Source: Cyanidioschyzon merolae (Eukaryota). From it: 64,000 nucleotides of DNA. Under the pieces are notes generated by a model. The model worked only from the letters and a program-made list of their open reading frames with translations, was not told where the DNA came from and ran no database searches. The stretch lies in assembly GCA_000091205.1 (NCBI GenBank), contig AP006500.2; one strand, written 5' to 3'. The position numbers and the translations under genes are program-made. Below, piece by piece: positions 1-64,000 of this stretch. Numbering within the stretch: position 1 is the first letter of the stretch; each line of letters opens with the position of its first letter.

Positions 1-789
1 GATGGAGAACGCGCTGACATTCCGCTTCGACTTGGGTATCGTTCAAAAACTGGAGAGCTCGAAGCCTCCACGCATGCTTCTCATCCTCAACTGATTCAGC
101 GATGAAACTCCATGGAAAACTGCTCAGCACTTTCCGACGCTGGTACCAGCCGGACGGTCGTGCAAACAGCTGCTTCCGGCGAGCACGAGCATCCATAGCC
201 GCTGCAAAAGACTCGTTGAATGCCTTTTCACTTTTTGCGACACGTATGGACGATCGTATTCGCAACGGATTTTCTGCCCGTTTCCACCAAAGAACGCAAG
301 GCGTTACCGGGCGTTGTCGTCAATAGATAGAAAAGTGTTCTGCAGCAGCTGATGCCCAATAAAGAGCAGGCATCGCGTAGGCAGCAAAGTCGAGAAATGC
401 CCTGCTTCTGCTAGGTTCTCGTAGGGTACCCTTAGAACTGGGTAGCTCGTTTCCGCGTTTTTTCGATGCTTGTCTACGTCGAGCGGGGCGTCCACGATGC
501 GGCGCTCGACGCGTTTGTGTTCAATTCAACTAGAGTCCTGAATGACTTGCTCTGTTCCTGCCTTTGTATATTTACAAGGACTTTTTTTAGAGGAAGATTG
601 TCGACATTCGACGTTCAGCACTGCGGCCTTGCGCATTTATTCGTCGTTTCCGGATTCCTGGTCGTCTCTGTGGGGTACTTGTTCGACGCTTTGTGGCTGG
701 ATTTGATGACATCATTGAAATCGAGATGTTTCGCGAATCTCTCTAAAAAGTTTCGTAATAGCCAACATTATGCTCGAGTTTATGCGTGC

Positions 790-1500
790 AAGCCTCGACT
801 CCTTTCCTGTGGTATGTTGCATGTTCAAATCTCGCAAACTTTACGTTTTCGATCTTTCTGTTTCAAGGCAACTCATGGTTCGGCAATTACCGGGCTGCAT
901 CGGCGCGGAAACCTTCTCGACGTCATCCTTTGACGACTTTTGCACAAGCTCACGCCGAAATCTCGACGAGACTGTCACGTGAACGAATGGATTCCATCCG
1001 AAGGACGAATGCGTCCCTCTGTGTGGCCATCAAACAGGAGGCGTTCCACAGCAGCATGATACCTCTCAGTGAAAACGTGCTCCAAGATGATCCAGTCTCT
1101 TTTGTTTGCACTGAAAGAGGTTTCGGACTCGGACCTAATGTGTAGCAGCGAACGCTTCCGGTACAACATGCGTTACCGCTTTTCGAGCACGCAGCGTCTA
1201 TGGTCTGGAATTTCTCTACTTGGTCTGCAACTTGAATTGGCCTCCCGGTACGCGTTTCCTCATGGAAGACACAACAGTCCACAAATCCGTTGTCCAGTGC
1301 AAGAGCGTGCGCTTGGGCATGCAGCATTCAGAGTACTCGCCGAGCGGATCGCCATGGAGAAGCCCTTGATCCTTGTGCATTGTGCTGGGAGCGGAAACAG
1401 CGACGAGCATGGAAAGTCGCATGCTGTGCCAGACAAGGGCATGTACGGAGCACTGAACCAAGCGTTCACTTGCCACATAGCGGTGCCCGATGGATGAAGA
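790..1500 (+). repeat. Dispersed repeat, copy A (matches 7600-8320, same orientation, about 70-75% identity by eye)
   Basis: Matching blocks by manual alignment, e.g. 'gattccatccgaaggacgaatgcgtccctctgtgtggcc' against 'gattccttacgaaagacgaatccagttctctgtgtggca', and 'agcgtgcgcttg' in both. The small ORFs translated from each copy give similar peptides (RTNASLCVAIKQEAFHSSMI vs RKTNPVLCVARDHAAFRRSMI). Confidence 0.6.
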
Positions 1501-2843
1501 TGTTCAGCAGACATACGGGAACGCCGGAACACGTGACAAGCGCTCCGCACCGAAGCCGTGCACATAACTATGAAATCTTAATCGAAGCTCAGCTCACAAC
1601 TTCCAGCTGTGCGTGGAATGCGTCAACAATTACCGAAAGCTGCGAAATCGGGATGTGAACACCACCGTCATCATCTTTCGATTACTGGTACCGGAGCTGG
1701 GCGAACATGACAGAACACCGTATTTAGAGCCGGAGATAAACGGGTGAACAAGGAAGTAGTCACAGAAAAAAGACCCGCAAAGACTGCTTCATATGGCTAC
1801 GAGAAGCCAATACCTTTACGACATACGCCCCATTTAGCTAGCCGGAATCGTTCCATTCTATGCTGACATGCTTGAATTCCTTGAGGTTCTACGAGGAACC
1901 GCAGGCGCCCGGGCGATCATGGCGAGGAAACGTCCGCGGATACGCGAGTGCATCAAGTCGCTCTCGAGGCGACCTCAACTGCACTGCACACACACTTCAA
2001 CGTTCTTCCGCCCGCTTGAGACCAGATTTTGCGTTGGGTGTGAAGGCTCGATCCACTCGTATACTTCGTGGATACGAATCCAACCATAAACGACGCACGA
2101 GCACAGAACAGCTTGGCGTTAAACTCGCGGGCCGCGGCTCGAAGCAGCGCAGCTTTGCACCCGCTCCCCAACGCGCTCAGAGGTGGTACTGGTGGTGCTG
2201 GTTGCCAACGTCGTCGTCGTCGTTGTCGTTTGCGGAAGTGTGGAGGCACCTAAATCCCTGGAGCAAACTGATCCAACACGAGGACTTGTCATAATCAAAC
2301 AAAAAATCGGTTTGTGACGGCTTGCAAGCAGGGAGGCTTCCTAGTTTGCGCCCCGTCTTCAGCACTCCCAGTGAGGTCTCGGAAGAAGCGCACGCACCAG
2401 GGCAAGGCTCGCGGGCAGCACAAAGCGCTCATGCTTCGGGTGGTGGACGTCCTTACACCGGAACGAGTCCGGGCTAATCGGCAGCTATATACGGCCTATC
2501 TGCGCTGGGTCGCACGTTATCCGGTAGCAAAGCTGCGGTGCCAGCTGCGTCTCAATATCCAGGAGGCGTTTCGTTTACGACAGGCATATTTTCGAGCGCT
2601 CCTACGTGATGCGCTTCGTAGCCGTCATGCGAACGAGACGCGCATCCGCCAAGTACTCCATAATTTAGACGAACAGCTCCATGGAGAAGCGCGGCAGGCG
2701 CTAGATGCCTTGGAACGCTTTCGTCTCGAGCTGAAGCAGCTACCTGCATGGTCTGCAGACAAACAAGTTGCCGACGACGACCGCGTGCGGTAAACCGCGG
2801 CAAGACATTGCCAGTTTCGGCGCTAGTCCGGATGTTGCTCCAT

Positions 2844-3800
2844 CTAGGGGTCCTTGGGAGTTCCCGTCAACGTCATACGCGGTCGATCCATTAGAAGACT
2901 CTTGGTGGCCTCGTAGCCGCCGAAAAAAAGCGCTCCGCCCAGCGAAATCCAGAGAATGCGTGGCGTCGTCCCGCTGAACAGTGTTCCGATGCCCTCTTCA
3001 CGTGCTATCTGTTGCATGGTTCCCCAGATTCCTTGCTGTGTGGCTGCACTAGCTGATCTCGTCATTAACCGAGTCTTGACAACGTCCAGTGGTGTGGTGC
3101 AAGCCGCAGCGATACCGCCTGCTGCGCTACCACACAAAGCGGACTCCCAGGTTTCTAGCGCACGACCTTTGCGTCGGGACCATATCTTTTTAAACGCTTC
3201 GTAGAGGGGAAATTCAAGGATATCGAAAGGCACCTCACGAGCGATCAGTGAGCCCCATCCGCGATACAGGCCGCGAATACCCTCCTTCGAAACGATGGCG
3301 CTTACAGCGTCCACAGAACTTCGATAATAGCCCGCTTGAAGATTCTGCTTCACCACCTCGAAGGGCACCCGCATGAAGGAGCCCGCCAGGTCACCACCAA
3401 CGGCAGCCACCATATGGACCAGCGGCGGTGCACTCTGCGGAAAATTTATCGTGAGGGTTTTCTTCAGCCAATCGTAAGTACCGAAAAATGCCGCAGCTGC
3501 GGGTGCCGATGCAACAATAGCCGGAAGTATACCGTTGTATATGCCCCGAAAGGTCTGAGCACCAAGGCGCGAGCCCGGAACCTGAAGTCTTGTTTTCAGT
3601 GTGTCAAGCGGGAACAAGACCAGGTCAGCGATGGTGCCAGCAGCGGCCCCCGAGATCAGACCAACTCTAAAAGACTCACTCGGCGGTAAACTCCGCTCTG
3701 TTGTACGATGCTTTTTTGGATCATTAGTGCGTGTCTCGTTCATGACAACAGTGATGCTGTAACGACGCCGACAACAACTCGCTAAGCAACGTCGACGCAT
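2844..3800 (-). CDS. Mitochondrial carrier family protein, S-adenosylmethionine carrier-like (SLC25A26/SAMC type)
   Basis: About 300 aa with three carrier repeats: 'LFPLDTLKTRLQ' (cf. human SLC25A26 LFPLDTIKTRLQ), 'VPFEVVKQNLQ', 'TTPLDVVKTRLM'. The internal Met (MNETR..., aa 20) is a plausible alternative start. Confidence 0.75.
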   Translation of the reverse strand: MRRRCLASCCRRRYSITVVMNETRTNDPKKHRTTERSLPPSESFRVGLISGAAAGTIADLVLFPLDTLKTRLQVPGSRLGAQTFRGIYNGILPAIVASAPAAAAFFGTYDWLKKTLTINFPQSAPPLVHMVAAVGGDLAGSFMRVPFEVVKQNLQAGYYRSSVDAVSAIVSKEGIRGLYRGWGSLIAREVPFDILEFPLYEAFKKIWSRRKGRALETWESALCGSAAGGIAAACTTPLDVVKTRLMTRSASAATQQGIWGTMQQIAREEGIGTLFSGTTPRILWISLGGALFFGGYEATKSLLMDRPRMTLTGTPKDP

Positions 3801-6035
3801 TGGAGAAGCAGGTGTGGGCGCAGACCTAGCGGTACCAGTGAACGCTTCTCGGTTTGTCCGTATACCTTCAGTTAGTTAGATTGCAGTTGTTGCACGCGAC
3901 AGCGCAGAACAGGTCGCAGTCAACGACTCCGGGTCGCCGGGCGAGACTCGACACCAGCTGCTAAGCGATACGCCCACCTGTACACGCCTTCCAAAAGTGA
4001 GCCCACAAGCGCTGCCGAATAGAACGCGCCGTTCAACCTCAAACTGCAAGATCGCGTCGCAACCCTAAACACTAGGCCTGTTAGAGGTCAAATGCAAGTT
4101 GCAACGTCACCGAGGTCAACGCTGTCGAAGAGGCTCCGAGCTCCGAGTCATTGGCCAAGCACGTCGTCGCCGTCGACGGCCGCTTCTGGGTATCTCCGAA
4201 TGGGAGAAGCGATCGCTGCTGAGGTTATTGCTTCCCCATTATTGCCATCTAGGGGCGTCTGTGAGGGGCTCTTCGGGCTTCCTCTTCCCAGGTCACGTGC
4301 GGCGATGACGTCTCTGGAAGCGTCTGGTTAGATTTTGGGATACTATAGGACTCGTTGGAACCTGGAAGTATTTGCGAATGAACTGACGACTTGACAGTCG
4401 ACGAGAGGTTATCACGCCGACGCCCTAATGTGCGCAAGGTATGTCCCTGGGGGGTTCATTCGCTTACTTCCGTGAAGTGTGGATATTCATCGTGCATCTA
4501 CGAAGCATTGGGTTTTGTGGTTTGTGGACGGGGCTTGATAAGGCCAGTGCCCGTCAAACAAGGTTTCCTGAAAGGCCATAAACCTACATGGTGTCATCGC
4601 TGGGGTTGCACGGGTGTGTGAGCCGCAGAACGCCGCGGCCACGGGTGTCGACGAGCAACCAGCTTGGGCAGGGCTTGTTCAGCGGCTCTGCAGCTGCGTT
4701 TGTTCGGGAATAGCGGTGCATCAGCACCAGTCCTTTGTCTGCGTTTGCCAGTGAATGCCGTTGCACGTAGGGCCGTAGCTGCTGCACGAACTCGTGCCTA
4801 GCGGCTAGCCGGCGGGCAACGGGCAGGTAGCCTCACCGGTAGTATCCAGCTTCTATCCGTGGATACGGCTATGGTGGCAATAGACCGGGTAAGTGTCGAT
4901 GAAAACGTGACGTTGACAGGTCAGGCACTGCCAGCGGACGGACGTCCGGGACGGGTACCCGCTTCCCTGTACCGATTCGAGACCGTAAAGAATCCGTCAG
5001 TCAGACTGGAAAAAAGCGTTCGTAGCATTGAATCCAGTATTTCATGCTTGTTGTCGATAAGATGCGCTCTGCGTCATGAGCATCACGCACGTCCGTTTCA
5101 TCGTATCTGAAGGACGGAGGCGACACCTGGGCCTAGTAGAGAACGCTGCTAGAGGAGCAGGCTGGCTGTATAACTGGTTTAATTTACCCGTTTACAGCGC
5201 ATAGCGTAGAAGTAGCCCCATGCTAAAGGACGCCTCGACATGACTACTGAAAGGATACCACTTCAAGCCAAGCGTATTGGATTGTTCAGTTGTAGAGGTC
5301 TTGGTGAATCCAGACAGATTGATCAAGAGTCTCGTGTGCGACTGAACAGTGTAACATTTATAGAGAGATCCTTTCACAACCCGCGGCTGCGGTATGGCAG
5401 GCATGCAAATAAGCTGGAACCCAAACGAAGGCACAGCAGTGCGCTGATTGGCTCTCATTCGTCCCAATGAGTGATCTGTGACTTTTCACCACGCAGCCTT
5501 GATCCGGTACCGGTAATAAAGCGCGGAGTTCCAGGCGTTTCTGGTCGAGTGTTGCGCTGCGGTACAGGAGGGCGATCTGCGCTCCAGTTACCGCTCGCTT
5601 TACAGAGCAGGATCGCTGAATCCAATCAGATTCTCCTGGAGGCTCCATTGCTGCCGCCAAAGATGCAATAGACCCATTTACTATGCAAGCGCTGCTGCCT
5701 TGCATCAACCAGGTGCGACCGATCGATTCTCGAATGAACGATTGTACAACTACATGAATGCATCTATGAAGGACTGCACAAACTGAGTCCACGCGCGCAG
5801 CCAACGCAAGTGTTTTACAGCTGGACGGCGCTTGGTCGTTCTTAAAAGTCGTTCAGGGTGACGTTCCTCGTCGTGCAGCGCTTTAACCGCGGTTCCAAAG
5901 CGGGTACCTACCCATCGAGCCGCAGCTCGGATTTTAGGCGGTTATCGAGCGCACGGTGCCTTGGTACGGGTGTGACAGCGCACTATCAACGAGTGCGCTC
6001 ACGGACGCCAAAGCAAGTTCTCTCAAACTGAAGCT

Positions 6036-7310
6036 GTGGGTGCAGGTTCCCAGACAGAGAGCCAGTCGAGGCTGCGTTCAATTGTGCTGTGTTGCACTCG
6101 CCGTCGACGCTCTACGGCTAGAGACGTAGCGTTCGTGTTCATGCACGATCCTGTGTGCTTCATACAGCATCCCGCGGCACGAACGGTGCGGCATGCTCTG
6201 TACCAGCGACCCGCTTCTGGTGCGCTGCCGAGGGCGACCCGCTGCTACCGGTGCCGCTCAGTCGTGCGTTACGGCTGGCTGAGGGCCTCCAGTGAGCACT
6301 CGTCGGAGCGACACGTCCTCGTTACTGGTGTGGCGGGTTTTCTGGGTTTCCACGCGGCCCTAAAACTTGCCACCCGAGGCGATCGGATCACTGGTATCGA
6401 CAACTTCAATGCGTACTATGACCCGAGCCTCAAACGAGACCGAGTGCGCTACCTGATGCGGCACGCTCCTGCTATACGCATCATCGAGTTAGACTTGGCG
6501 GATCAAAAAGCTGTCGATGAACTGTTCGCATCGCATCGCTTTACCCATGTGCTCCACTTGGCTGCGCAGGCCGGCGTACGACACTCTATCTCGCACCCGC
6601 ATTGTTATATCCAGAGCAACTGCGTTGGCTTTCTTCACATCCTAGAGGGCGTCCGAAATCACCGCCCGCAGCCACCGGTTCTAGTGTATGCATCCTCGTC
6701 GTCGGTGTACGGCCTGGAGACGCAGCTGCCGTTTCGCGAGTCAATGACCGCCGATGCACCAGCGTCTCTCTACGCAGCCACAAAACGCGCCAACGAACTC
6801 ATGGCTTTCACGTATCATCATCTGTACGGTATCAAGACGACGGGTCTCCGATACTTTACAGTCTATGGCCCGTGGGGTCGACCCGATATGGCCTACTACG
6901 CGTTCGCGAATGCGATGCATTCTGGCAAGCCGATTACCCTCTACCGATCGGGGTCAGCGGAGCCCTCTCGGGATTTCACGTACGTTGATGACGCGATCGA
7001 TGCAACTGTAGCTGCACTTGATCGCGCATATCCGTGGGAAGTTTTCAACGTGGGGAATCATCGCATGGAGCCGCTCAGTGCCCTGGTTACCAGTCTGGAA
7101 GAAGCGTTCGGCATTGAGGCGCTAAAGCAACATACCGGGCTGCAGTCAGGAGATGTACCTGCGACCTATGCTGATATTGGCAAGGCGAAAGAGTTGCTCG
7201 ACTATGATCCGAAAACGAGTCTTCGCGAGGGGATCAAGAAGTTTGCCGCCTGGTATCAGTGGTACCATGTGGAGAACCGGCATGCCGTGGAGGCAGGTCT
7301 GGGAATCTGA
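6036..7310 (+). CDS. UDP-glucuronate 4-epimerase (GAE-type NAD-dependent epimerase/dehydratase)
   Basis: Rossmann motif 'VLVTGVAGFLGFHAALKL'; 'IDNFNAYYDPSLKRDRV'; 'FTHVLHLAAQAGVR'; 'YASSSSVYG'; 'ASLYAATKRANELMAFTYHHLYGI'; 'GLRYFTVYGPWGRPDMAYY'; 'RDFTYVDD'; 'KKFAAWYQWY'. Near-collinear with plant GAE1. The first ~90 aa of the ORF are low complexity, so the true start may be an internal Met. Confidence 0.85.
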   Translation: MGAGSQTESQSRLRSIVLCCTRRRRSTARDVAFVFMHDPVCFIQHPAARTVRHALYQRPASGALPRATRCYRCRSVVRYGWLRASSEHSSERHVLVTGVAGFLGFHAALKLATRGDRITGIDNFNAYYDPSLKRDRVRYLMRHAPAIRIIELDLADQKAVDELFASHRFTHVLHLAAQAGVRHSISHPHCYIQSNCVGFLHILEGVRNHRPQPPVLVYASSSSVYGLETQLPFRESMTADAPASLYAATKRANELMAFTYHHLYGIKTTGLRYFTVYGPWGRPDMAYYAFANAMHSGKPITLYRSGSAEPSRDFTYVDDAIDATVAALDRAYPWEVFNVGNHRMEPLSALVTSLEEAFGIEALKQHTGLQSGDVPATYADIGKAKELLDYDPKTSLREGIKKFAAWYQWYHVENRHAVEAGLGI

Positions 7311-7599
7311 GATGAGTCTCGAGTGCGCTGTCGACAGGGGTTGTGCGATGATGGAACACGGACCTGCTGGCTCTGCTCCTGCATTGCGGTTTTAGTTCCG
7401 AATTTTTATTAGACGAAAAGCGTCGATATTCGAGGGGCAGCAACAGGAACGCACAGATTCACACATCGTTTTAGGATTCTCGGTCGTCTTTCGGGAATGG
7501 GTTACGGTTACGTGAATCGAGATGATTCGGTGCGCTCTAAAACAATTGTCCGTAAAATATCCGATATCATCATCCAGTTTGTATGTGAGAACTTATACG

Positions 7600-8320
7600 C
7601 TTCTGCTTTCCTTAGGCATTGCATGTTCTGTTCATTCATTCTTCAAGTTTTGGATCAGTCTGCTTCAAGGTAACTGGTGCGCGGACTCTTGTATGCCATT
7701 GGATGGACGAGGAAACGAACTCAACATGGCACCGGAACGACTTGTTCGCGAGCTCTGGCCGAAAGTTCACTGAACTCGTCACCCCTCAACTAATCGATTC
7801 CTTACGAAAGACGAATCCAGTTCTCTGTGTGGCACGCGACCATGCGGCATTCCGCAGGAGCATGATAGCGAGCATGCGCTATGGTACCAGAGGCATCCGT
7901 GCCTTCTGTTTTTGCATGGAAAAGGTTCCTGGACCCGGACTCGAGTCATCACAGCGATTGCTTCGACTAGAGCATGCGTTATTGCCGTATACGATTGAGC
8001 TTCATCAAATCAAAAATGTGCAACTTGCTTTTCTGCCTGAATTTTCGTCGGGTGCTCGTTTTACCTAGGACAAGATTGAATTCGGCAAGTCCCGTACCGA
8101 ATGGAACAGCGTGCGCTTGCAAGTGTAGCTGCCAGACCACTCAACGACTGGGTAGCCCAGAGGATGCCTGTGATTCCAGGGGACGGCATCGGGCGCGGAT
8201 TCAGAGGAGGGCATCGAGTGGGGCGCTCGGTACCCATCGGCGGCATGTATCGAGCGATAAAGCGCGCCTTTAAGCATCATCGAGTTGCCCTCAGAGGCGA
8301 AGCAGGTGCAATGGACATAC
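7600..8320 (+). repeat. Dispersed repeat, copy B (partner of 790-1500)
   Basis: See copy A. Collinear similarity by eye includes 'ttgcatgttc', 'ttcaagg(c/t)aact', 'ctctgtgtggc', 'catgcgtta', 'tgcaacttg', 'agcgtgcgcttg'. Confidence 0.6.
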
Positions 8321-9371
8321 CTGGGAACACCTGAACACATAAGGGTGTCACCGCTGTACGGGTCGCACCAACGCTGCATAGAAGCTCGATGAAAGTGACG
8401 AGCGATGCGTCGATCGCATGTTGCATTGGGGCATGGAACATGTCGACAACAGCCAGCAACAGCGGCCCAGGGACTTTACCACTACCATCAACATCCTTCG
8501 ATGACTGACCACGGTGCTGGAGAGGCAACATAGACTAGCAGATGTAAACCCTCAGCTAAGAGCGTGGAAAATGGAACAGCAAAACAACAAGCGTGCAAAG
8601 GCTGGTGTTGGCGTCAATGCGAAGAGACCCAGACTTCAGTGTATACGCCCGAGTTCGAGGGCCTGTCCCATATCGTTGTGTCACGGGTGTAACTGTGTTC
8701 TCGTTTATCGCGAGCCTATCCATGGAAACTGCTTTGCCTTCCAAGTCTAGCTGCAAAAGTCGTTGCTGGATGGAAGAGCCCAGACCGCGGCGCCCTCAAG
8801 ACAAAGCCCCAGTCGTTATCGTGTCCATGGATGGAACGACAGCGAAAGCGTGCGACAACATGAGCAGCGGCTGCGCTGAGTGTTTCGGTATCAGCATTTG
8901 CAGCGCCGCGTTGACGACATTAGCGCATCAGTGGTTTCAGTCAATGGAGAGTGTGCATGCCCGGCAGTGTTTGCTCCCCGTAGCCACTGCTTTCTAACTG
9001 GGCACTGATCATTACTAATGATGTATTGGCTTAGTCGCTCACCAACCTGGATGCGATGCGATGCGATGCGCAGCATGTCGTGACGGGATTCGTACCTGAA
9101 ATGCCGCGAGGTCCCGAGCTCGCTTCGCACTTTGAGCAGGTGAACGCAAGTGTACGCCGAGTGTGTCACGTCCAAAACTGATAAGCGAGTGACCGTCGCG
9201 ACTCGGGCGTACCACAAGCAACCGCCGATGAATGAGCGCTCGTCAGCAGCAGGAACCGAGTCAGAGGTCTCGTAACCGTCTGCATACGGGATGTCATCTC
9301 TAAATCGGGTTATATCCGAATGCGTCGCCCACACATACTTGATCTCCAGTCCGAGGTGCCCCGAGACTCTG

Positions 9372-10325
9372 TCAGGATCCCGCTGGAAGCCGCTCTGTAG
9401 ACGTCCGTGCTGCCGATCGAAAAGGAATCAAGATACCGAACGGAATGTGCTGGATAACGGGGAGCTTCGACCATACCTCCGCTTTGTACATTCGCAACAG
9501 ACCAGCGTTGATCCGTGACCAGTTTTCTAGACCGCTGATGTCGTACAAGGTTGGCGAATGTTCCGCAAATGGACCTCTCTTCGTTTCCAGGATGAAGCGG
9601 ATCGTGTCAAAGTACAAATACTTCGGTGCGAGTTCGAGCACCAGCTCTCGGTCGCGAGCTGCCACTGGTGGTACCTCCGTATCTTTTCCGATCAGCTGCG
9701 AAGAACCAAACAAGAACGGAAGGAAAACGTAGTCGTCAAGTCCCCATACGCCGTGCGATCCTGCGGGCTCCAGGGTAAAGCGCTGCTGAAGGTACCGCGT
9801 CGTGGCTAGATACGCAGGGAATACACTGAGCACCAGTTCGGGAAAGTCCTCAGCTCGGAAGAGATGCAGACGGTGCAGACAGAACATAAACAGCAGAAAA
9901 GAGGCCTCGTGTCCTGTGCCATAATCTATTCGCATCGGGTCCCCGAACGCGCCCAAAAAGTATGCTTGCAGGTCGGGGCCGTATCGTTTGGTTTGATCGC
10001 TTTTGACAAGCAGCTCTTCAGTAAAACGCGGCGTACGCTCCTGCAGCTGTGAAAACCACGTCCGAAAAGCTCGGTTTCCGAAGCGTCCAGTTTCCGCCGG
10101 AAGCAGTTCAACCTCCGCTGCTAACTCTTTCAAAGCAGCGAGCTCCGCGGTAACCAGGCTAGTGGCCGGAACTCGGGGCCCGGCTAGGGCGTCCCCCGAG
10201 AGACCACGAACGCTGCAGTTCAGTCGTTCTACAAAGTCCCAGATGTCTTGGAATGCAGATGACTCCAAAAACTCGGCCAGATCTTTGTGGTCGTAGATCT
10301 GGCGTACTGGCTCAGACTCGTCCAT
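9372..10325 (-). CDS. Serine/threonine-protein phosphatase 2A activator (PTPA / phosphotyrosyl phosphatase activator)
   Basis: PTPA hallmarks: 'GVWGLDDYVFLPFLFGSSQL' (cf. GFWGLDD.QFLPF.FGS.QL); 'HLFRAEDFPELVLSVF'; 'YLYFDTIRFILETKRGPFAEHSPTLYDISG'. Start placed at the second in-frame Met (MDESEPVRQIYD..., verified in frame); the ORF extends to 10403. Confidence 0.8.
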   Translation of the reverse strand: MDESEPVRQIYDHKDLAEFLESSAFQDIWDFVERLNCSVRGLSGDALAGPRVPATSLVTAELAALKELAAEVELLPAETGRFGNRAFRTWFSQLQERTPRFTEELLVKSDQTKRYGPDLQAYFLGAFGDPMRIDYGTGHEASFLLFMFCLHRLHLFRAEDFPELVLSVFPAYLATTRYLQQRFTLEPAGSHGVWGLDDYVFLPFLFGSSQLIGKDTEVPPVAARDRELVLELAPKYLYFDTIRFILETKRGPFAEHSPTLYDISGLENWSRINAGLLRMYKAEVWSKLPVIQHIPFGILIPFRSAARTSTERLPAGS

Positions 10326-50450: not shown

Positions 50451-50455
50451 GACTC

Positions 50456-50493: not shown

Positions 50494-50494
<1 letters not shown>

Positions 50495-51193
50495 TGTGGA
50501 ATGCGCGCTGCAAACGTGTGTTGTTGATCGCTCGGAATCGATGCTGTGCTCGGGAGCTATGCCATTGTCGGACACGGAGCAGGGCACCAGTTTGCCCAGA
50601 GCAGCACGCACGACCTCGTTGCTCCACAACGAGAACAGCACGCTGCGACGAAGCACTCGGAGCGCCACGCGCTGACATCGCTCATGAGCGCTGCCAGAGG
50701 CCGTGAGCGCCTGGCGCAGTGCCCGCATCACCAACGCTACAGCTTCGCAGCGGACTCGGTACCATTGGTACCCAGGAGACGCGCAGAGAACATTGCGCTC
50801 CCACAAAAAGGCGCTCGCTTTCGGAGCCACGCCCCGCAGGCCGAGTCGAACGGCGACGCCTCGCGGCGTCCATCGGCTTTGAAGGCCGAGCCCGGCACCC
50901 GCCAGAGATCAGCGGGGCGTAGAGCGGGGCACCGCGAATCATATGTAAAGGCGTGTGGCGATGCCGTGCACGAGATCGGAACTGTAAATAATGGTCGTTT
51001 TCTGGAATTTATTAGATATTGCGGACAAATCAGGATGAATAATGCCAAGCACATGCGCGCAACCCATCTCACCACTGCATCGTTTTTGACGTAGTCGCGA
51101 AAACGCGTCTTTGCCACCTGAGGGGCCGGTGACGCGCCCTCGTGGACAGGGCGCCGAAGCAAACCCCGTCTGCCCCTGCGTGGGAACGAGTGC

Positions 51194-52665: not shown

Positions 52666-53673
52666 CTATTGAGTACGGCAGCGATTCGGATGCACTGGAG
52701 GATTCTTTTCAAAAGAAGTGCTACTTTTGGCCGCATCAGGATCACTTAGGGACCCGTCCGGACTAGCCGCGGCAGCTTCACCACAAAGAACGTCAAGGAA
52801 ACTTGCTATTTCTTCCGCGCTGGGGCGCTTTTCTGGATCCAGATCCCAGCAGCGTTCAATCAGTGCCACGACAGAGGCCGGCACCTTGTCACTCGTCTTG
52901 ACGAGACGTGGCCGCAAATTTTTCGACACGACTGCCGTCGCAGTCTGCACTGGCGTGAGATAGGTGTCCTCGTATGGCATTATGCCAGTCAGCAGCTCGT
53001 TGAAAAGAATCCCATAACTGTAAATATCTGCGCGACCGTCGTAGCGCTCACCGCGAATCACCTCCGGTGCCATGAAGCGATACGTCCCCGTCAGCGCCGT
53101 CATGACAGCCTCGCTATCGCCCTGCGTTCGGCTTACCCCAAAGTCGGAAAGTTTCGCAACGCGTGCGGGTCGGTCCACGAGCACATTGCTCGACTTGAGG
53201 TCGCGGTGGATGAGATCGTGTGCGTGAATGTACGCCAAGGCTCGGGCGACGTCGCGCATGATTCGATACACAAGTTGGGGTCGTCGTGAAACCCACTTAC
53301 GACGTCTGGAGATGGGCCCTCCTTCAAACAGTTCCATCACGAGAAACTTGCTCCCATCAGACGGGCGTACACCCCAACCGTAGTAGTTGAGAATATTGGG
53401 GTGCCAGTCCAGTTTACCAAGCACAACCTCCAACTCTGTCCGAAACGTATACTGCGTCTCGCGCCTAGCGTCAGCGTTTAACATTTTCACCGCAACCGGC
53501 CGCTTTTCGTAGGTACCCTCGTACACGATGGTCTCCGTGCCGCGACCCAGCTCGTTCCCAAGCGTGATGGCTTCCCACGGAATCTGCTTCTGTTTAAGCC
53601 GCTCCCTCGGAGATAACTGGACTGCTTCAATATCGTCTGTCATGAAATCAAAAGCACACGTCACACAACACAA
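52666..53673 (-). CDS. Protein kinase (Ser/Thr or dual-specificity; TKL/MLK-like)
   Basis: Gly-loop 'LGRGTETIVYEG', VAIK-type 'VAVKML', 'HPNILNYYG', catalytic loop 'IHRDLKSSNVLVD', 'LSDFGVSR', 'GTYRFMAPEV', 'DIYSYGILFNELLTG', 'RPSAEEI'. Confidence 0.85.
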   Translation of the reverse strand: MCCVTCAFDFMTDDIEAVQLSPRERLKQKQIPWEAITLGNELGRGTETIVYEGTYEKRPVAVKMLNADARRETQYTFRTELEVVLGKLDWHPNILNYYGWGVRPSDGSKFLVMELFEGGPISRRRKWVSRRPQLVYRIMRDVARALAYIHAHDLIHRDLKSSNVLVDRPARVAKLSDFGVSRTQGDSEAVMTALTGTYRFMAPEVIRGERYDGRADIYSYGILFNELLTGIMPYEDTYLTPVQTATAVVSKNLRPRLVKTSDKVPASVVALIERCWDLDPEKRPSAEEIASFLDVLCGEAAAASPDGSLSDPDAAKSSTSFEKNPPVHPNRCRTQ

Positions 53674-55281: not shown

Positions 55282-56241
55282 GTGCTCGTCGAGTTGTGCT
55301 GCACTGTTCACGCGTCGTCGACTACATCGGTTATATGTGCGCTGATCGTGGTTCCGGTCCACGAAGGCTGGGTTGTTAGCGAAGAACGAACTTGTGATCC
55401 TGGGATGATCCCTGTCCTGCGCGTCGCCACGCTTGCGGCACTCGCCAGGCACCTGCGACCTCGACAACGTCTACTTGGTTTCGACTTTTGTGGGCCCGCT
55501 GTCCTGGTCGCAGCTTCAGATAGAGAACGCACGCAGGCGGCACCGTTTGGTGTGTTTTCACGCTCTACCGATGGAGTCCAGGCGGACGCGACGTTGCTCA
55601 ATCAGGTATTCGAGCAGGCACGCGAGTTTGACGCACACGGGCAAGTGAATATCGGGGCGATTGTCGTGAACGTTGACAGCGCGCCTCAAGACGAAAACGT
55701 TTGCATCGTACCGAGTCCTCCACCGGCGCTTGCTGAATATGTGGAAGCGCTCGCACGGAGCCTGGATAAAGCCGTGGATACCGATGAAGAGCGCGCCCAA
55801 GGACTCGCTATTGTCTACTGGAACCAAGCGCACGTACTGCGAACGGTGCGCGCACAGGTGCAGGACCTCCGAGGTGTCATACACGAGCTCGAATTGTATC
55901 CGGAAAGAGAAAAGATCAGTGCAGCAGAGAATAACATGGAAAAACCGGAACCCTTCCTGCGACTGTCGCTTCTGCGGAGAATGCTGTTTGGGAACGGCGA
56001 AGGCATTCCTTCGAGACGACTGCGCAAAGCGCTTCATCGCAGGGAACGCAGACATCCAGGAAGCTACCATGATCCAAAACGTGAGGAAAAAGAGGCTTTT
56101 GCTCGAACGTTCGGAGAGGAGCATCTCGCCGTCCATGAGATTTTAGTGGATGTAATCGAGGAGCTGCGCCAATTTTCACGTGAAGATTCATCAGAGGGAG
56201 CAAGTGTAGAGAACACAAGGGAGTCGACTATGGTGCCTTAA
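55282..56241 (+). CDS. Hypothetical protein
   Basis: 960-bp ORF. Protein-like composition from aa ~60 onward (e.g. 'LNQVFEQAREFDAHGQVNIGAIVVNVDSAPQDENV'), and I recognise no motif. Confidence 0.35.
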   Translation: MLVELCCTVHASSTTSVICALIVVPVHEGWVVSEERTCDPGMIPVLRVATLAALARHLRPRQRLLGFDFCGPAVLVAASDRERTQAAPFGVFSRSTDGVQADATLLNQVFEQAREFDAHGQVNIGAIVVNVDSAPQDENVCIVPSPPPALAEYVEALARSLDKAVDTDEERAQGLAIVYWNQAHVLRTVRAQVQDLRGVIHELELYPEREKISAAENNMEKPEPFLRLSLLRRMLFGNGEGIPSRRLRKALHRRERRHPGSYHDPKREEKEAFARTFGEEHLAVHEILVDVIEELRQFSREDSSEGASVENTRESTMVP

Positions 56242-58828
56242 GGAGGCGAATTCAGAGCATGAGCAGCGATTACCAGTATTTGCTGTCGTCGAACGCATGT
56301 GAAACGCTGGAAATCGTAGCGCAGTCGGTGTCTGGCACGGGACGGCATTCGGCAATACGGTTTCAGATTCCAGAGCGCACGTCCTCAGGGCCGGTAATGT
56401 ACGCTCGCCCAATATATCAGGCACACGAGCTCGAGTTGAACGCATTCGAGCTCTCGACACGCCTCTCCGTGTCTACGCAAACGTACCCGGAAAGGAGGCA
56501 TACGCAGTACAAGGCATCGTATAGACGAACGCGGCAGTATGGCGTGTACCCATATCAGATGAAAAAGGAGCTCTGGAACTGCACGCCAGCTTCCTACGTC
56601 TCGATTTTATTCCGAAGTTGAGTTTAGATGCACATCCTCGACATTCAACGTGAAGCAATACGCACTTACTAATGCATTCGCAGTCCTAGGATCCTGGGTC
56701 ATCTATTCGGAGCGAATCGTTCGCTTCTGTGCCGTTCCTCATGGTCACGTCACCGGAATCAAGAGGATTCGCAACACCCTCGAAAAAGAACGCCCTATAT
56801 ACCAGATATCGTTGCCCAGTGCACACGTCCAAACCCCGATTCCTATGCTGTCCGTTCGTGTGCAGCATGCTGCAACCGTGCATGCTTCAAGTTTTCTAGC
56901 GTGCGGTTGCAAGGCAACTCGTGGGCCCAGCAAGGCGCCCAGCTGCATGGACGCGGTAAACTGCGCGATGGCGTCCCTCGGGGACTCGTTCACGAGCTCG
57001 TGTCCAAAGTCCACTGAAACTCTCAAGTCAAGTAATCGATGCCTCTCGACAGAGAAACGCTCCTCGCTTTGCGGCCAACGACGAGACCGCGCTCGACAGC
57101 AGCAATCGAGCCATGGCAGGGTATGTTCGTGGCGGCTCCGTTGTGTCCTGTTCGCATGAACAAGTGCCTTGGACTGGGGCTTGCGTCACCGCAGCGATCG
57201 CTTCAGGGGAAGGGCGCGTCACCGCTTTGCTCGAAGCGAGCGTAGACGGATCGAGATGCGTCGACATGATCTCCAGCCTGGCTCTCCCTCGTGTACTTGT
57301 TGCATCATGATCGGCGTAGCGCTGCGAGAATCCTCTACCAAATGGGGCAGCGTGCACCTGCGCATTCACCCGACAGAAGACGCGAGGACGGCATCGCTCA
57401 GAACTCTCCAGGTATCTTGGGGCACGGCAGCGAGCGCGGAAATGGAGCAGGGCATCCAGAGCAGCGCCTCCTGTAACCGGATCATGGGCATCTACCGAGA
57501 TACGAAGCAAACGTTTACGCGCCGCAGGGCGGCGCTCGTCGGAAGACGTATGCTAGGCATCTGGAAACACCTGACCAGAGCCGTTCCACGGCTCTGCGCG
57601 TATCGCACCGAGCCGCCAGAGCGACACGATGGGAGCGGCAAGCGCCATAGAGATCTCAGGTACCAGCTGTGCAAGCGGTACGCGAGTCAGACCACGGAAT
57701 CAGCCTGGTTGGGGCTTGGATGCTATCACCAGCATCCTTCGACTGCTCGTATCGAGATCAGGGGGACAGGAGAGCCTGGCGTATGGAAAGTCAGACACCA
57801 GAGACGGGCAAAGCAAGCGGACTCGGAAAGAGCCCGCCACGACCTATGTCGATTTCAGTGGAAAGAGGCCCAATGCATGGAGTACACGCCCGTGTTCGCT
57901 GACCTATTCCATTGTATTCTTACGCGGGTAAAGTGAGAGCATTGCGTAAGCGCATGCGCACACTTATACACACACAAACGCAAACATACATGCAAAGACT
58001 CCCAGTCGCATGCATACACACAAACCAGCTCATGGCCATTGTTCCGACCTATGCACATGAACTACAGCTGCAACAGCCAACAACTGGAAACCCGGTACAC
58101 AGGTTCACGAGGCGTGCCGCTGGACCAGGTTTTGAAACCGATCGTTAGCGCTTCGTTTTTCGCCGCGCACCTGAACCCGGCTGGTTCGGTGTCCCTGCTT
58201 GATTCTTCGCGGAGGGAACAGTTGCCTGCGCCGTTTTCGCGAGTTTCTGTGCCTTTTGGCCACTTCCGGTTGCAGCTTGCGTGCGCCGCAGTTCCTGCAG
58301 CGCTTTCGCGATCGCACGCAAAACTGCTTTTCGCTTTGCCGTGTGCGTCAAAGCGCCGTCATCGCTAGGCTCCTCTGGAAGCTGAACTTTCACTCTCCCT
58401 GCCACAAAAAAATCACGAGGATGCTTCTTATCAGGCTCCAAGAGAGCTGGGAAACTCAGCTTCTCCTGACACACGCGAAAAACCTCCGCGGCTTCCGGTG
58501 CCGAAACCGCTGAGCGCCTCGACACGCGTCGACCATCGGCCCTGCTCCGTTCTTTCGAGAAATAGATTGGGTACACCAAGATCCACTGACCACTGCCTGG
58601 AGCTGGTGCGGTGTCAACCATGCCGCTGAGGCGTGAACACTTGGCTGTGCAACGCTCTCAAGAACGTGCAGGTGAGCAGGCACCCTCAAGCTGGACATCG
58701 TGCGCTCGGAACGATCAAGAGCGTCGGCCCGCATCCTCCACGCTCATGAACGAGATGCTTTGGGTCAGTTTGAAGCTAGCAACAGCGCATAACGATACGG
58801 TTGAGCTTGTTTTCTTTTAGAACTAGAT

Positions 58829-60046
58829 ATGGCTGCTACGTCAACCTTTCCTGGTACTGGCTGGTGTTTGCAACCAGGTCGCCGTTTGAGCACAGCGTTC
58901 ACGCACGACGGTGGTGTGCTAGTGCAGCTCCGGTCTGTGAGGCGGCAGTGCACGTGCAGCGTTCGTGCGGCTCTCGTGACGCCTCCAGGAGGCACGCCCA
59001 GCTGGAGGCCTGCCATGCTGCGTCTTTCCATGCAAGGCGCACAGGATAGCGGTGCGACAACGTCCGGTTTGTACGGAAACAACGAACAGACGCGTAGTGT
59101 GAGAGCGCCCCTGCGAGACGCTGCGCCCTACAGCGCTGTCTGTGAACTTGCCGCCGAAGCGGGGCAGTTGACGGACGCCGAGCTGCAGAGACGCCTTGAG
59201 AGCATCGCGGGTGTGCCTGCCGTGTTCCCCGAGCCGGAAAAACCGCTCGATATCCCCAATGCGCTGGAGTTTTTCCGGCTGCGCACTGGAGAGTGGCTCT
59301 CCAAACGAGTCACGCAGCACATGGCCTTCCGTCGACAGGAGAGCGGCGAGTCGCGCATTACCGCGCAGTTGCTGGAGGCAAACGACGAACGTGTCAAGCA
59401 ACTGTGCGCCCTACACAACTTTGCGGAAGACGCTGCTATGGGTGGCTGCCTCGTCACCTGGCGAGCGACCCTGCAGTGGGACCAGGAAGGCGACGCCCAT
59501 ACCGGCGAGGCGATATTCGCGCTCGTTGCCCAGCCGGGCTCCAACGGACGGTGCGGTAAGATACTCAGGGACCGTGGTTACGCTGAAGTGGTCCCGATAA
59601 CCGGCGACTTTTACATGGATGAGGAAGATGCGCTGTATTTGGTGACACCGTACGAAGGAGGAGAAGTTTCCGAAAAGTTCGTGTTTGCCGAGCGCGATAT
59701 TTTGTATCGCTTTTCCACAGTCAAACGAATGGGCGGCTTCAGTAACGCCACGTATGCAGTAGAGACACGAATTCCTTACACGGGAAACGGCGAGGTTTTG
59801 GACACGTCATCCATTGAGGACGATGACATTAGTATTTTTGGCCTGTCATCTGTTGATGCGCAGCAATCGCGACAGGAAGAAGACAGTAGACTTCGTCGAT
59901 TTGGCTCGCTGCGAGGTCGAATGGGCGACCGATGGGAGAGTCCTCTCGGTAAGAAAATCGAAATCGATGAGAGCAAGTTACCACCTTCGCTGCGATCGTC
60001 TCCGCAGCCGCCATCGTCCTCATCGCCCAGTACTGACGCGGATTAA
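58829..60046 (+). CDS. Hypothetical protein
   Basis: 1218-bp ORF with protein-like central and C-terminal regions (e.g. 'GKILRDRGYAEVVPITGDFYMDEEDALYLVTPYEGGEVSEKFVF'). It ends in an acidic, Ser/Pro-rich tail, and I recognise no motif. Confidence 0.35.
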   Translation: MAATSTFPGTGWCLQPGRRLSTAFTHDGGVLVQLRSVRRQCTCSVRAALVTPPGGTPSWRPAMLRLSMQGAQDSGATTSGLYGNNEQTRSVRAPLRDAAPYSAVCELAAEAGQLTDAELQRRLESIAGVPAVFPEPEKPLDIPNALEFFRLRTGEWLSKRVTQHMAFRRQESGESRITAQLLEANDERVKQLCALHNFAEDAAMGGCLVTWRATLQWDQEGDAHTGEAIFALVAQPGSNGRCGKILRDRGYAEVVPITGDFYMDEEDALYLVTPYEGGEVSEKFVFAERDILYRFSTVKRMGGFSNATYAVETRIPYTGNGEVLDTSSIEDDDISIFGLSSVDAQQSRQEEDSRLRRFGSLRGRMGDRWESPLGKKIEIDESKLPPSLRSSPQPPSSSSPSTDAD

Positions 60047-63000
60047 GCGCTGCGCCCTAAAAAGACGATTCTTCCCAACAACGCCAGCTGTGACATCGTT
60101 CGAAGTGATACATAGTTGATATGCGCATCGATGGACATGCATCTGTCCTTCTCCGCATGCTGTTGCTTTGTTTTTTTTTTTGATTCTGGAGCAACTTGCA
60201 GCATCACGCGGTACCGCTGATCGAAAAAGAAACCCATGCTCAGATCATCGATTGATCCGTGGACACCCGACGAGTGGTAGCGTGCGGCAGCACAGGTTTC
60301 CGCCGTTCCACACACCTGGACGGTGGCTGATCTGCTCCGCCTTAAAAACACGAACGCTGATTCCGGGCAAGTCTTTAATTCGCTGCGTTTTTGTGGTGCT
60401 TGTGATAAGACTTGTAACCGCAGACGCTCAGGACGCGGAGTGTGAGCGTGATCATTGTTGCGGTGGGTTCTGTGCTGGATTGCGGGTCGCGCCTTGTCGT
60501 GGCAAGCTACCATAACAGAAAAAAAATGCAAGATAGCGAGCTTCCTAGCATGTTTCGTGCATCATGTACACTGCGCCTCGTAAGCAACATGAAGATGGTA
60601 CCATTTATGTTGTTATACAGGGAGCAGTGAATTCTGGAGCATCTGTTCGAGGACACACCATTTCTTTTTTCTCTTTTTTTGAAGGTATACAGCTCAAGGC
60701 ATGGATCCTGTAGTTTAGAGATAGCTCGCGAAAAACTTGGTGCTGTGACTACCAGCATGCGAAGAACGGCCGTGCTCGTACAAGTCAGGTATTCTCTGGA
60801 TAGCTGGTGGATGAAGTGCCCCTCAAAAAGTCCTCATGCTCTACGTCATGCACCCGAAACAGAACATATGAACCTTTGTCTACATAATTGCCTCCTCGTC
60901 CATCCATACCACTCCATACGTCGTCTAAGATGAATTTGCGAAGAATCCGCATCATACCAAATTTCCGTACCTTGGATACGAACGAGGATGAAGAGGTATC
61001 GATGGCGAAAAACGAAAACGTGTTTCTGCAGGAAACCTCAGCCCATGGAGCTACACGCGATCGATTTGGAACTAGATCGCGAAAGCTTATGATAGGCGGA
61101 ACGGATGCTTGTCTCGATCAATGAGACCTCATTCGCGAAAAATACTAGAACTGGATATGAGCCAGGAAGAAGTGGGAAATTGCTGGTCTCAAAGGAGCGA
61201 TACCCGTTGATTCCAACAGAATCAGCCGTAGCGGCGATTCAATCATGCGGGCGCCAACAAATCGACGAACGGAAAGAGTCGTTCAACACCTCATCCCCTA
61301 TCGATGCAGTTTCTGGTTTCACCTCTCCGTATTCTTGTGTCCGGGTTGTAGGTCACGTCGCATTTTATCATGCGAAAAACCGCTCAGTGGCTACACAGCT
61401 GAGACTGGCCTTGAGCTGTTCTTCGCGCACGACTGTTATCCCAGGTTCAAGCAAACTGAACGTCCTCCATATTGTCATGTGCCGATTTTACGCGCACAGA
61501 TGAGTAGACGAGCTGTTTGCATGCGTGACGCGCAAGTTCTTCGATAAACTGTACTTTGAGAAATCGATGCCCGCGCTACGCAGCTGTAAAGTGCCCTGTT
61601 GCGCCTCTGCTCGTGTGCGGGAGGAAGCGGAAGGCGCTCTTTTGTCCGTGGGCGTGCTCACGAGGGAGAAGGGAACGAAAACGTGCCACGCGAATACGAG
61701 ATACTAGCATTCATAGTACAGGTGAGTTTCAGTCTAAGCGTCGACTGAATTCCTCTGAACCCGATTGACAGAGCGGAAATGGAGAATACAGACGAAATCC
61801 ATGCCATCATCATGCGTAGAGGAGAAAATGACACTTTCGAGAAAACGACTACGCAGGCAAGAAGAGAACGTGTCGAAGCGGAAAAATCGGTCAGAGAGCA
61901 TTGCCAAAGCCTCTCGATTATAACACATCCAGAAGAAGGATCTTCCATAACGTAAGATGCAGGGCGCAACGGGGAATGACGTAGCTTCCTGGTCGAACGA
62001 GCATCGCCTGGCTTTCCTCATCCTGACAAACTTCGTCATGCAATTATTCGTACGAGATACGCACGCTAGGATATCAGGTGTCCATATTCCTCGGAGAGTC
62101 ATCGATCAAGTCGCCGTGCGACAACAGAACTTTTGCTCGGGACAGAATACGGTTGGGAGGCATGCGATATGAGCGCTTCTGTATCGACCTCGACACACTG
62201 AGCAAAGTACGGAGCAGAGATGAATGCTTCGTCCACTTTATTCAGAGAACGAGAGTGCGCGAACGTCCCAATGTCTCTCTGAGACGATTTTTAACCAGAG
62301 TGCATGAGACTGAGCAGGGATCGCAAGCGGTTTCGGGTGTATACAGGCAAGACGCGTTCATTCGCCTGCGACTTCAATGAGTAGGAAAAGGAACTAACAG
62401 ATAGCATGCGTCATTTGGTAGTAGCCTATGGTGCTGGACGCGCTGTCGCACGCAACTGCTGCAACCCTGGCCCGTCAGTGGGCGCATACAACGCGAACGC
62501 GAGTCGATGCTGCACGATCCCCATCGATGCATTGGGCACGATGTACACGAATCACGAGCACGGTTGTGCGCTGAACCAGGCAGAGGAGCAGGAAGGAAAA
62601 CATATCCCGATGCACGAAACGGTGTAGCATACGCTAGTTGAAGGTCGCATGACGAGGCAATGGAATGTGAGAGACTCGTTCTGTTGTGACTTTACCAGCA
62701 ACATTGGCAGCAAGCACGCTCTGCACCGAAACCCGAACGCCTTAATACATATCCGGAAATGGCTCGTACTGCCGCAGCTCTCAGCGACTGTGTTTCCAGC
62801 GAATTTGCGCGGATATCGTTTCGCAACCAGTGTGGATATTGTGCTGAAATGCTGCAGGTTTGGTTTGAAAGTCTCAGTGGCTTGCGAAGGTGGCATTGGA
62901 TCCACGCGGAGAGCCTGAACCTCACACGGTACCATTCATGATTCCAGCATGGCTAGAATATCGCATCTGTACACCAGGGACGTTTTCCTGGGCAACTTAT

Positions 63001-63102
63001 AGACAATCGTGGTGTTTCATTGTTGAACATTACAGACTATCATGAGACGGACCATACGTCAATGGTTTCCTCTGTCATCTTGGTGCCAATGCGTTGACTT
63101 GT

Positions 63103-64000
63103 TTACCAGCGTTCGCTGGGGTGCGGGTCACCACACCGAAGATCGCAGCACGATGATATCAGGAAGAGTTTTCCCGGGAATGGTCTTGTTGGGCGCTTGA
63201 TCCCCACCAGACGATACGCGTCCATGGAGGTGAGTGGATCCCCAGCCACTCCCAGCTCTACACGTTCGACGAATTCGAAGAATATTTGTATAAACAAGAC
63301 CAGTTCATGCAATGCATACTCTTGACCTGGGCATCGATACATGCCACCACCGAAAGTATAGAGCTGTCGTGTGCGTCCGCGGAAAAGCGCCTTCTTATCC
63401 TCGATGTGCTGGTATCGGCAGGGGTCAAAGCGTTTGCCACCTCGATGTTCATCTTGATGAGCCAGCCAGGGTGAAATGCAGAGGTAATCTCCAGCCGGAA
63501 TGCGGAAATCATCGACGTAAAGCGGCTCGCATCCAATTCGGACCGCGATTCCGCTGCTCGCCAATCGAAGTGTTTCTGTAACAAGCTCCCATGCCATGGA
63601 TTCGGTTACTGGCCGCGCTCGGTTGCACCATTCAGCGCTGAGAACAATTAGCCAACCTGCACTCAATAGAGTATTCGCAGAAGAAGCCCAGAGTAGCGTC
63701 AGCAGAACGGATGCGCATACTTTTTCATCCGAGTCCAATTTGGCGAGCAATTTCCCCGCTGGAGTCGCCGGCTCGACCAGTCGCACAGCTCGTTGCATGG
63801 CTCGTAGGAGCTGTCGACGCGCGCGGCTGAAAGAGCGCAGCAAAAACTGTGGAATCGGCAGCGCAGCCAGCTCAAACTCCCGATCAAAAGCCACGAACGT
63901 TTCATAGAGACGCCCGTCCTTGTTCAAGGCATTTGCACATTCACGCCCGAATACGGTTTGGAATGAAGCGGTAAAGATTAGACGACCACACAAATCGAAC
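63103..64000 (-). CDS. Cytochrome P450, C-terminal part (gene continues beyond the window end)
   Basis: Heme-binding signature 'FGGGMYRCPGQEYA' (FxxGxxxCxG) about 50 aa before the stop, an upstream PERF-like region 'PCRYQHIEDKKAL', and a K-helix-like region. The ORF is open to the window boundary. Confidence 0.7.
   Translation of the reverse strand, partial: FDLCGRLIFTASFQTVFGRECANALNKDGRLYETFVAFDREFELAALPIPQFLLRSFSRARRQLLRAMQRAVRLVEPATPAGKLLAKLDSDEKVCASVLLTLLWASSANTLLSAGWLIVLSAEWCNRARPVTESMAWELVTETLRLASSGIAVRIGCEPLYVDDFRIPAGDYLCISPWLAHQDEHRGGKRFDPCRYQHIEDKKALFRGRTRQLYTFGGGMYRCPGQEYALHELVLFIQIFFEFVERVELGVAGDPLTSMDAYRLVGIKRPTRPFPGKLFLISSCCDLRCGDPHPSERW

Follow-up and report, generated by a model that had tools for sequence, protein, structure and literature searches.

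The 64,000-nt stretch of DNA described here (the window, meaning the whole stretch) is, judged from its predicted proteins, almost certainly a 64-kb piece of chromosome 18 from the nuclear genome of Cyanidioschyzon merolae strain 10D, a unicellular red alga. After the open reading frames (ORFs) had been cut back to their first ATG, an exact-sequence lookup matched 16 of the products, without a single residue difference, to C. merolae 10D proteins whose accession numbers are consecutive (BAM82345–82348 and BAM82350–82361), and the locus tags CMR084C to CMR090C fall inside the window. The tag prefix CMR would also fit chromosome 18, R being letter 18 of the alphabet. The gene content comprised 18 protein genes of the annotated type, one small conserved ORF and one selenocysteine tRNA (tRNA-Sec) gene, with coding sequence making up 57% of the window. 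Housekeeping genes (APC1, a HUWE1-type E3 ligase, PTPA, SRP19, NDUFA12 and an SLC25 carrier) were found together with the plastid-related genes for a CYP38-like, predicted lumenal cyclophilin and a CpeS phycobilin lyase. Each protein gene is one uninterrupted ORF, presumably with its own promoter, neighbors lying nearly always on opposite strands. The genome to which the locus belongs was published in 2004, with its completion following in 2007; the locus is therefore already known, and the taxonomic call brings no new biology. What is annotated and published for C. merolae is the proper reference for the features of the window, which are not to be taken as unknowns. The only potentially new biological finding is that a HUWE1-type ligase seems to have been divided between two conserved neighboring genes.

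Origin of the Window

An earlier note, made from the sequence alone, had described the window as a eukaryotic, nuclear and intron-poor locus, probably of a photosynthetic or formerly photosynthetic protist, and had put a Cyanidiales red alga first on its list of candidate taxa. Both calls were correct: the best matches were eukaryotic and red-algal, the 16 identical proteins are those of C. merolae 10D, and C. merolae is placed in the Rhodophyta, order Cyanidiales, in the NCBI taxonomy. The exact sequences of the epimerase, HECT, APC1, NDUFA12, and CYP38-like proteins were recorded solely in the 10D genome, and hot-spring metagenome contigs over the same region showed 99.1–99.6% DNA identity to the window. 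Thus, the window represents the reference strain or DNA indistinguishable from that of 10D.

Hot-spring contigs from JGI, ENA and Logan span the region in large numbers at this level of identity, and would also be compatible with an origin from a strain other than 10D or from a Cyanidioschyzon population in the environment, for example as a contig from an acidic hot-spring metagenome. We regard such an origin as very improbable, since the 16 proteins equal the 10D entries exactly, whereas the environmental variants differ from them (1730–1731 instead of 1729 amino acids for the HECT protein, and 332 instead of 325 amino acids for the kinase), and since none of the environmental contigs retrieved was identical to the window.

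Assignment to strain 10D is thus strongly preferred. Some points weigh against this reading of the window as an annotated chromosomal segment with individually transcribed genes: for the 2371-amino acid ORF described below, whose 10D gene model is thus provisional, no exact database entry was obtained with either of two starts tried, and both the presumably monocistronic transcription from one promoter per gene and the suggested sharing of promoter regions by three close head-to-head gene pairs are read from the layout of the genes.

The composition and compactness of the window are by themselves compatible with other eukaryotes that are GC-rich and intron-poor, such as a prasinophyte, a stramenopile or a kinetoplastid. 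These groups were excluded by the exact C. merolae protein matches, the presence of a CpeS lyase, the synteny with other Cyanidiophyceae and the alternating strands. The CpeS-like phycobilin lyase (58829–60046, plus strand; BAM82361, 405 amino acids, exact match), which the earlier note had missed, is the clearest red-algal marker in the window. It carries an N-terminal extension followed by a nearly complete match to the lipocalin-like CpeS profile PF09367 (positions 2–170 of 170; E = 8.7e-49), which places it in the CpeS/CpcS family. The earlier note had instead used an epimerase of the GAE type, together with a CYP38-type cyclophilin, as a sign of a plastid-bearing lineage. For the epimerase this argument is weak, as UDP-sugar epimerases of such a kind are not known to be diagnostic of plastid-bearing lineages. 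For the cyclophilin, a position within a non-photosynthetic clade would have spoken against a photosynthetic host, and its closest solved relatives were found to be the chloroplast proteins CYP38 and CYP37 together with a cyanobacterial homolog.

Some compositional figures had to be corrected. The overall GC content was 56.4% (58.5% in coding and 53.6% in non-coding sequence) and not 58–60% as estimated earlier; the C. merolae genome has a GC content of approximately 55%. The strong bias for G or C at third codon positions that had been claimed was not observed: pooled values for the first, second, and third codon positions were 65.3, 51.2, and 59.2%, respectively, the third position thus being below the first. 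Frequent CAG and homopolymer tracts were indeed present (Q12, D6/D8, A8/A11, S9, and T9 in the proteins, along with seven CAG/CTG-type runs six or more units long in the DNA).

A Candidate Two-Gene HUWE1-Type Ligase

Two of the longest genes in the window lie tail to tail. The first (11776–16965, plus strand; BAM82348, 1729 amino acids, exact match) was found to encode only the C-terminal part of a HUWE1/Tom1-type E3 ligase, in which an acidic region and UBM repeats are combined with a HECT domain. In a PDB search the HECT domain was closest to that of HUWE1 (E = 3.5e-132), followed by Tom1 (1e-119), and Pfam showed a nearly complete HECT profile match (positions 3–305 of 306) plus UBM (DUF4414) repeats, the combination seen in HUWE1/Tom1/UPL1. 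The DUF908 and DUF913 domains that these ligases carry in the same chain were not found by Pfam in the 1729-amino acid protein.

The second gene (18479–25594, minus strand) is predicted to encode a 2371-amino acid protein, a candidate for the N-terminal half of a HUWE1-type ligase. Its sole family match was DUF913 (32.7 bits), with residues 749–836 aligned to profile positions 105–198. DUF908 and DUF913 are reported to ‘typically co-occur’ with DUF4414/UBM in the HECT class concerned (PMC3673628), and one relative (P0224) was shown to contain DUF908, DUF913, UBM, and HECT in one chain. Three orthologs of the 2371-amino acid protein also matched DUF913, over the same stretch of the profile (19.6 bits for the one from Cyanidiococcus, 21.2 bits for P0245 and 40.8 bits for P0247). 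In addition, a profile of four orthologs compared by hhalign with a profile of Tom1, HUWE1 and P0224 aligned at the DUF913-like segment (84 columns, P = 0.005). The two proteins sum to 4100 amino acids, a length comparable to the 4374 amino acids of HUWE1. The tail-to-tail arrangement was conserved in an independent environmental assembly, in Cyanidiococcus yangmingshanensis and in assembly GCA_026184775.1 (loci L012, 10001–22644, and L020, 10001–21067), and the pair is therefore not an assembly artifact.

Two results count against a fission. Outside the segment of approximately 90 residues, no similarity between the 2371-amino acid protein and HUWE1 or Tom1 was detectable, and DUF908 was not detected in either gene. 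Both phmmer and a three-sequence profile of this protein returned nothing at E ≤ 1 from PDB, where HUWE1 and Tom1 are both represented at full length, and a BLASTP comparison with a full-length HUWE1-like protein was not significant. A word-indexed search with the protein yielded only an environmental copy with 99% identity. When residues 1–1200 were searched exhaustively with phmmer against 1.84 billion representatives, only four real relatives were obtained (P0213, P0245, P0246, and P0247), none of them with a HECT domain. Of these, P0247 comes from the syntenic locus L020; the other three are assumed from their identity alone to be cyanidiophycean. The N-terminal 783 amino acids of P0224, used as query for building a profile of the HUWE1 N-terminus, returned nothing.

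Taken together, the domain content and the conserved gene pair leave the chances evenly balanced that, in the Cyanidiophyceae, an ancestral single-chain HUWE1/Tom1/UPL1 ligase may have been split into two adjacent convergent genes. An inversion with one breakpoint inside the ancestral gene would be a likely route to the tail-to-tail geometry. The solenoid N-terminal product of 2371 amino acids and the 1729-amino acid product with the acidic region, UBM repeats and HECT domain would then need to reassemble non-covalently into a ring-shaped ligase. No prior report of a split HUWE1-type ligase was found in the searchable literature.

Gene Organization and Strand Alternation

The three long ORFs of the earlier note were confirmed as real (11704–16965, plus strand, 5.26 kb; 18479–25594, minus strand, 7.12 kb; and 31953–40928, minus strand, 8.98 kb), and many further ORFs of 150–460 amino acids were present in the window. 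Introns in most genes would have contradicted the earlier description, and the genes in the window were found to be intron-free: each of the 16 annotated proteins corresponds to a single contiguous ORF, so that these 16 genes lack introns, and Pfam domain coverage was complete and uninterrupted in the ORFs. Introns are present in 0.5% of C. merolae genes.

The gene-by-gene alternation of strands described previously was also observed. The 18 protein genes are arranged as -+-+-+-+-+-++-+-+-, with a change of strand at 16 out of 17 junctions (17 out of 18 when the small ORF at 2431–2793 is counted), and the tRNA-Sec gene is located on the opposite strand between the members of the only co-directional pair. 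With equal chances for both orientations, the probability of at least 16 changes in 17 junctions is 1.4e-4. This figure, and the conservation of order and strands of at least seven window genes in two other genera, could point to a constraint peculiar to this locus, for example bidirectional gene pairs that form a co-regulated array. However, Davila Lopez et al. (2010, PMC2871058) had already listed C. merolae as one of a few eukaryotes whose genes are not randomly oriented, and Table S1 of that study counts 1,606 convergent and 1,601 divergent pairs next to 1,670 co-directional ones, that is 65.8% of neighbors on opposite strands and 34% co-directional. At this genome-wide rate of 65.8%, the probability of at least 16 changes rises to 0.008. 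Besides, five flanking genes (UVB_sens and SNF2, both on the plus strand, to the left; P450, Tam41, and Kish, all on the minus strand, to the right; contigs L001 and L009) were shown to break the alternation, and with these flanks added, 17 out of 22 junctions change strand (P = 0.18). The genes are, moreover, functionally unrelated. A special local constraint is therefore improbable and was rejected; strands do alternate in the window, but as an extreme local case of the published genome-wide bias.

Three head-to-head pairs, APC1/NDUFA12, CMR086C/NIF and SRP19/CpeS, are 191–341 bp apart. This spacing suggests shared promoter regions, and the members of each close pair would use a common bidirectional region.

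Interspersed Repeats and Minisatellites

Most of the long tail-to-tail gaps were found to be filled by two families of diverged, non-coding interspersed repeats, and four out of the five copies in the window lie in such gaps. Family 1 is represented by copy A (519–1865; approximately 1.35 kb, with a full-length profile match and an nhmmer E of 1.9e-80 against copy C), copy B (7340–8688; nhmmer E = 4.2e-81) and copy C (56554–57929; 1376 bp, detected by nhmmer and by profile search), all on the plus strand. Pairwise nhmmer comparisons of the copies gave E-values of 1e-75 to 1e-87, the old copies being approximately 57% identical. Outside the window, 9.78 kb downstream of copy C, a further copy (copy D; L001, 17505–18880) showed 98% identity to copy C, and a fragment of the family was found at the end of an unrelated contig (L009, 1–141). 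The orthologous gaps of Cyanidiococcus and GCA_026184775.1, which are much shorter, did not contain family 1. The two members of family 2 (29167–31647, approximately 2.5 kb, and 60612–62982) were detected by nhmmer in inverted orientation relative to each other (E = 1e-48 to 1e-54) and fill both 3-kb tail-to-tail gaps.

Family 2 did not contain a dominant reading frame, and family 1 showed no coding signature. Copy C does contain a long frame with one TGA, and the repeats were considered as protein-coding or selenoprotein genes. This was ruled out by substitutions distributed evenly over codon positions, stop codons throughout copies A and B, indels that are not multiples of three and a junk-like translation. 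Copies C and D as part of a high-copy mobile element were likewise rejected, the shared 36-mer occurring just twice per environmental contig.

A ‘novel interspersed repetitive element’ with 253 copies of a mean length of 3.2 kb has been described in C. merolae, where it is transcribed and accounts for approximately 5% of the genome; its defining feature is a truncated ORF weakly similar to wsv486 of white spot syndrome virus (Nozaki et al., 2007, PMC1955436). The repeats of the window probably belong to this element. They resemble it in being dispersed, intergenic, of kilobase size and without an intact ORF, and family 2 extends over at least 2.5 kb. Family 1 differs in being just 1.35 kb long and in having no coding signature.

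In addition, two minisatellites were detected by Tandem Repeats Finder (TRF), both in head-to-head (divergent) gaps: one of 8.6 copies of a 50-bp unit (25919–26350; score 650, 91% matches) and one of 5.0 copies of an 81-bp unit (44124–44525; score 762, 98% matches). No tandem array corresponding to the former was called in the equivalent gap of Cyanidiococcus, which is shorter.

The tRNA-Sec Gene

A tRNA-Sec gene with anticodon UCA was identified at 50830–50918 on the minus strand by ARAGORN and by Rfam (RF01852; 61.1 bits compared to a gathering score of 47). The transcript is predicted to fold as a cloverleaf with a long extra arm, as is characteristic of tRNA-Sec. Liang et al. (2019, PMC6627142) have already described the selenocysteine machinery of C. 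merolae, PSTK excepted, and a tRNA-Sec gene was therefore expected. A permissive Rfam scan of the window gave only one further match, isrG, which occurred by chance.

Other Genes

Pfam and PDB searches agreed with the earlier note on the families of APC1, the HECT E3 ligase, PTPA, the SLC25 carrier, NDUFA12, the CYP38-type cyclophilin, the epimerase and the cytochrome P450. NCBIfam yielded nothing for nine out of ten proteins submitted. All genes with a BAM accession below encode exact matches to 10D proteins.

At the left end of the window, a small conserved ORF with an ATG start (2431–2793, plus strand; 120 amino acids) is LYR-motif-like. By tblastx it showed 67% identity over 103 amino acids to an annotated 112-amino acid Cyanidiococcus protein in syntenic position (E = 2.5e-41), which itself gave a weak Complex1_LYR match (18.8 bits, under the cut-off), and a counterpart of 117 amino acids is present at the same syntenic position in GCA_026184775.1. 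It is followed by the SLC25 mitochondrial carrier (2844–3800, minus strand; BAM82345, 318 amino acids; three Mito_carr repeats, E = 2e-59), which is annotated as Pet8p/S-adenosylmethionine carrier-like. An NAD-dependent nucleotide-sugar epimerase (6141–7310, plus strand; BAM82346, 389 amino acids) covered the complete Epimerase profile (positions 1–240 of 240) and clearly belongs to the short-chain dehydrogenase/reductase (SDR) superfamily of epimerases and dehydratases. Its best PDB match was 5u4q (E = 2e-95), a chain labeled dTDP-glucose 4,6-dehydratase, and no NCBIfam equivalog was found above cut-off. The family named earlier was thus correct; the more specific GAE label rests on the name UDP-glucuronate 4-epimerase given by JGI/IMG to members of the same cluster. 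PTPA, the PP2A phosphatase activator (9372–10325, minus strand; BAM82347, 317 amino acids), matched its profile over the full length (positions 1–293 of 293; E = 2e-98).

In the spacer between the carrier and the epimerase genes, several independent metagenome contigs (L005–L008) stop at approximately 4900–5100, with ends at 4900–5064. Contig L009 (1–2540) departs from the window at 5099 and continues into an unrelated adh_short gene and then the family 1 fragment; an assembly chimera and a strain-level variant or rearrangement are both possible explanations of this switch.

The CYP38-like cyclophilin, predicted to be located in the thylakoid lumen (26863–28965, plus strand; BAM82350, 700 amino acids), had Arabidopsis CYP38 as its best PDB match (3RFY, chain A; E = 2e-24), residues 304–666 being aligned to residues 34–359 of the chain over both domains, followed by the cyanobacterial Alr5059 protein and chloroplast CYP37. 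The Pfam matches were marginal (CYP38_PsbQ-like with 25.9 bits compared to a cut-off of 27 bits, plus cyclophilin). The putative PsbQ-like helical bundle with a cyclophilin domain on its C-terminal side is the CYP38-type arrangement, here preceded by an N-terminal extension of approximately 300 amino acids. APC1, anaphase-promoting complex subunit 1 (31953–40739, minus strand; BAM82351, 2928 amino acids), was identified by PDB matches to human APC1 over four stretches (E = 3.6e-70) and to yeast APC1 (1e-28) and by the APC1_3rd profile (28.2 bits compared to a cut-off of 27). The product of the neighboring NDUFA12 gene (40931–41998, plus strand; BAM82352, 355 amino acids), which is the B17.2 subunit of complex I with a long extension at the N-terminus, matched positions 3–96 of the 98-position profile. 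In the NDUFA12, CYP38-like and CpeS proteins, extensions of approximately 140–300 residues precede the conserved domain and may represent targeting sequences or mis-set start codons.

For CMR084C (42968–43855, minus strand; BAM82353, 295 amino acids), labeled Rrp42-like in IMG, no match was found in Pfam, NCBIfam or PDB, and for CMR086C (47707–48543, minus strand; BAM82355, 278 amino acids) no family match was found in Pfam or NCBIfam. Between them lies the gene for an RNA-binding protein similar to HABP4/SERBP1 (45593–46666, plus strand; BAM82354, 357 amino acids; HABP4_PAI-RBP1). The next two genes, on either side of the tRNA-Sec gene, encode an NIF/FCP1-like phosphatase of the haloacid dehalogenase (HAD) type, labeled TIM50 in UniRef (48885–50162, plus strand; BAM82356, 425 amino acids; NIF, E = 3e-12), and an alpha/beta hydrolase (51371–52249, plus strand; BAM82357, 292 amino acids; PGAP1, Palm_thioest, and Abhydrolase_1). 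They are followed by a Raf-like Ser/Thr protein kinase (52666–53643, minus strand; BAM82358, 325 amino acids; Pkinase, E = 4e-50), CMR090C, to which no function was assigned (55405–56241, plus strand; BAM82359, 278 amino acids), and SRP19 (58145–58621, minus strand; BAM82360, 158 amino acids; PF01922 on record).

The cytochrome P450 at the right edge (63103–64000, minus strand; profile positions 328–428) was shown to be incomplete, although it had been listed earlier among full-length proteins. The frame leaves the window without a stop and comprises approximately 299 codons inside it, whereas the protein has 495 amino acids in related contigs (L001); thus, the C-terminal part alone is present in the window. 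No PDB match was found for it at E ≤ 1e-20.

Comparison with Known Systems

Compared to chromosome 18 of C. merolae 10D (Matsuzaki et al., 2004; Nozaki et al., 2007, PMC1955436), the window showed 16 identical proteins, and no difference was detected. It also resembles the 10D genome in being intron-free, in its GC content of approximately 56% and in containing interspersed repeats.

The corresponding region of C. yangmingshanensis (GCA_026122185.1, JANCYV010000002.1, 130–155 kb) has the same gene order and strands as the window: SNF2 (+), the small LYR-like ORF (+), carrier (-), epimerase (+), PTPA (-), UBM plus HECT (+), a 2317-amino acid DUF913-like protein (-) and the CYP38-like cyclophilin (+). 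Gene order and strands were likewise conserved in GCA_026184775.1. The C. yangmingshanensis region differs from the window in that the proteins are approximately 52% identical with no similarity at the nucleotide level, and in that the intergenic gaps are far shorter and do not contain family 1 repeats.

The ligase pair resembles HUWE1/Tom1/UPL1, the class VI HECT ligases with DUF908, DUF913, UBA, UBM, and HECT in one polypeptide, in its HECT domain, its UBM repeats and the DUF913-like segment of the neighboring gene; no DUF908, UBA, or WWE domain was detected in the pair. Unlike in these ligases, the DUF913 part and the UBM plus HECT part are present in the window as separate genes placed tail to tail on opposite strands. 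If real, this split would offer a test in nature of whether a giant ring like that of HUWE1/Tom1 can function when built from two chains.

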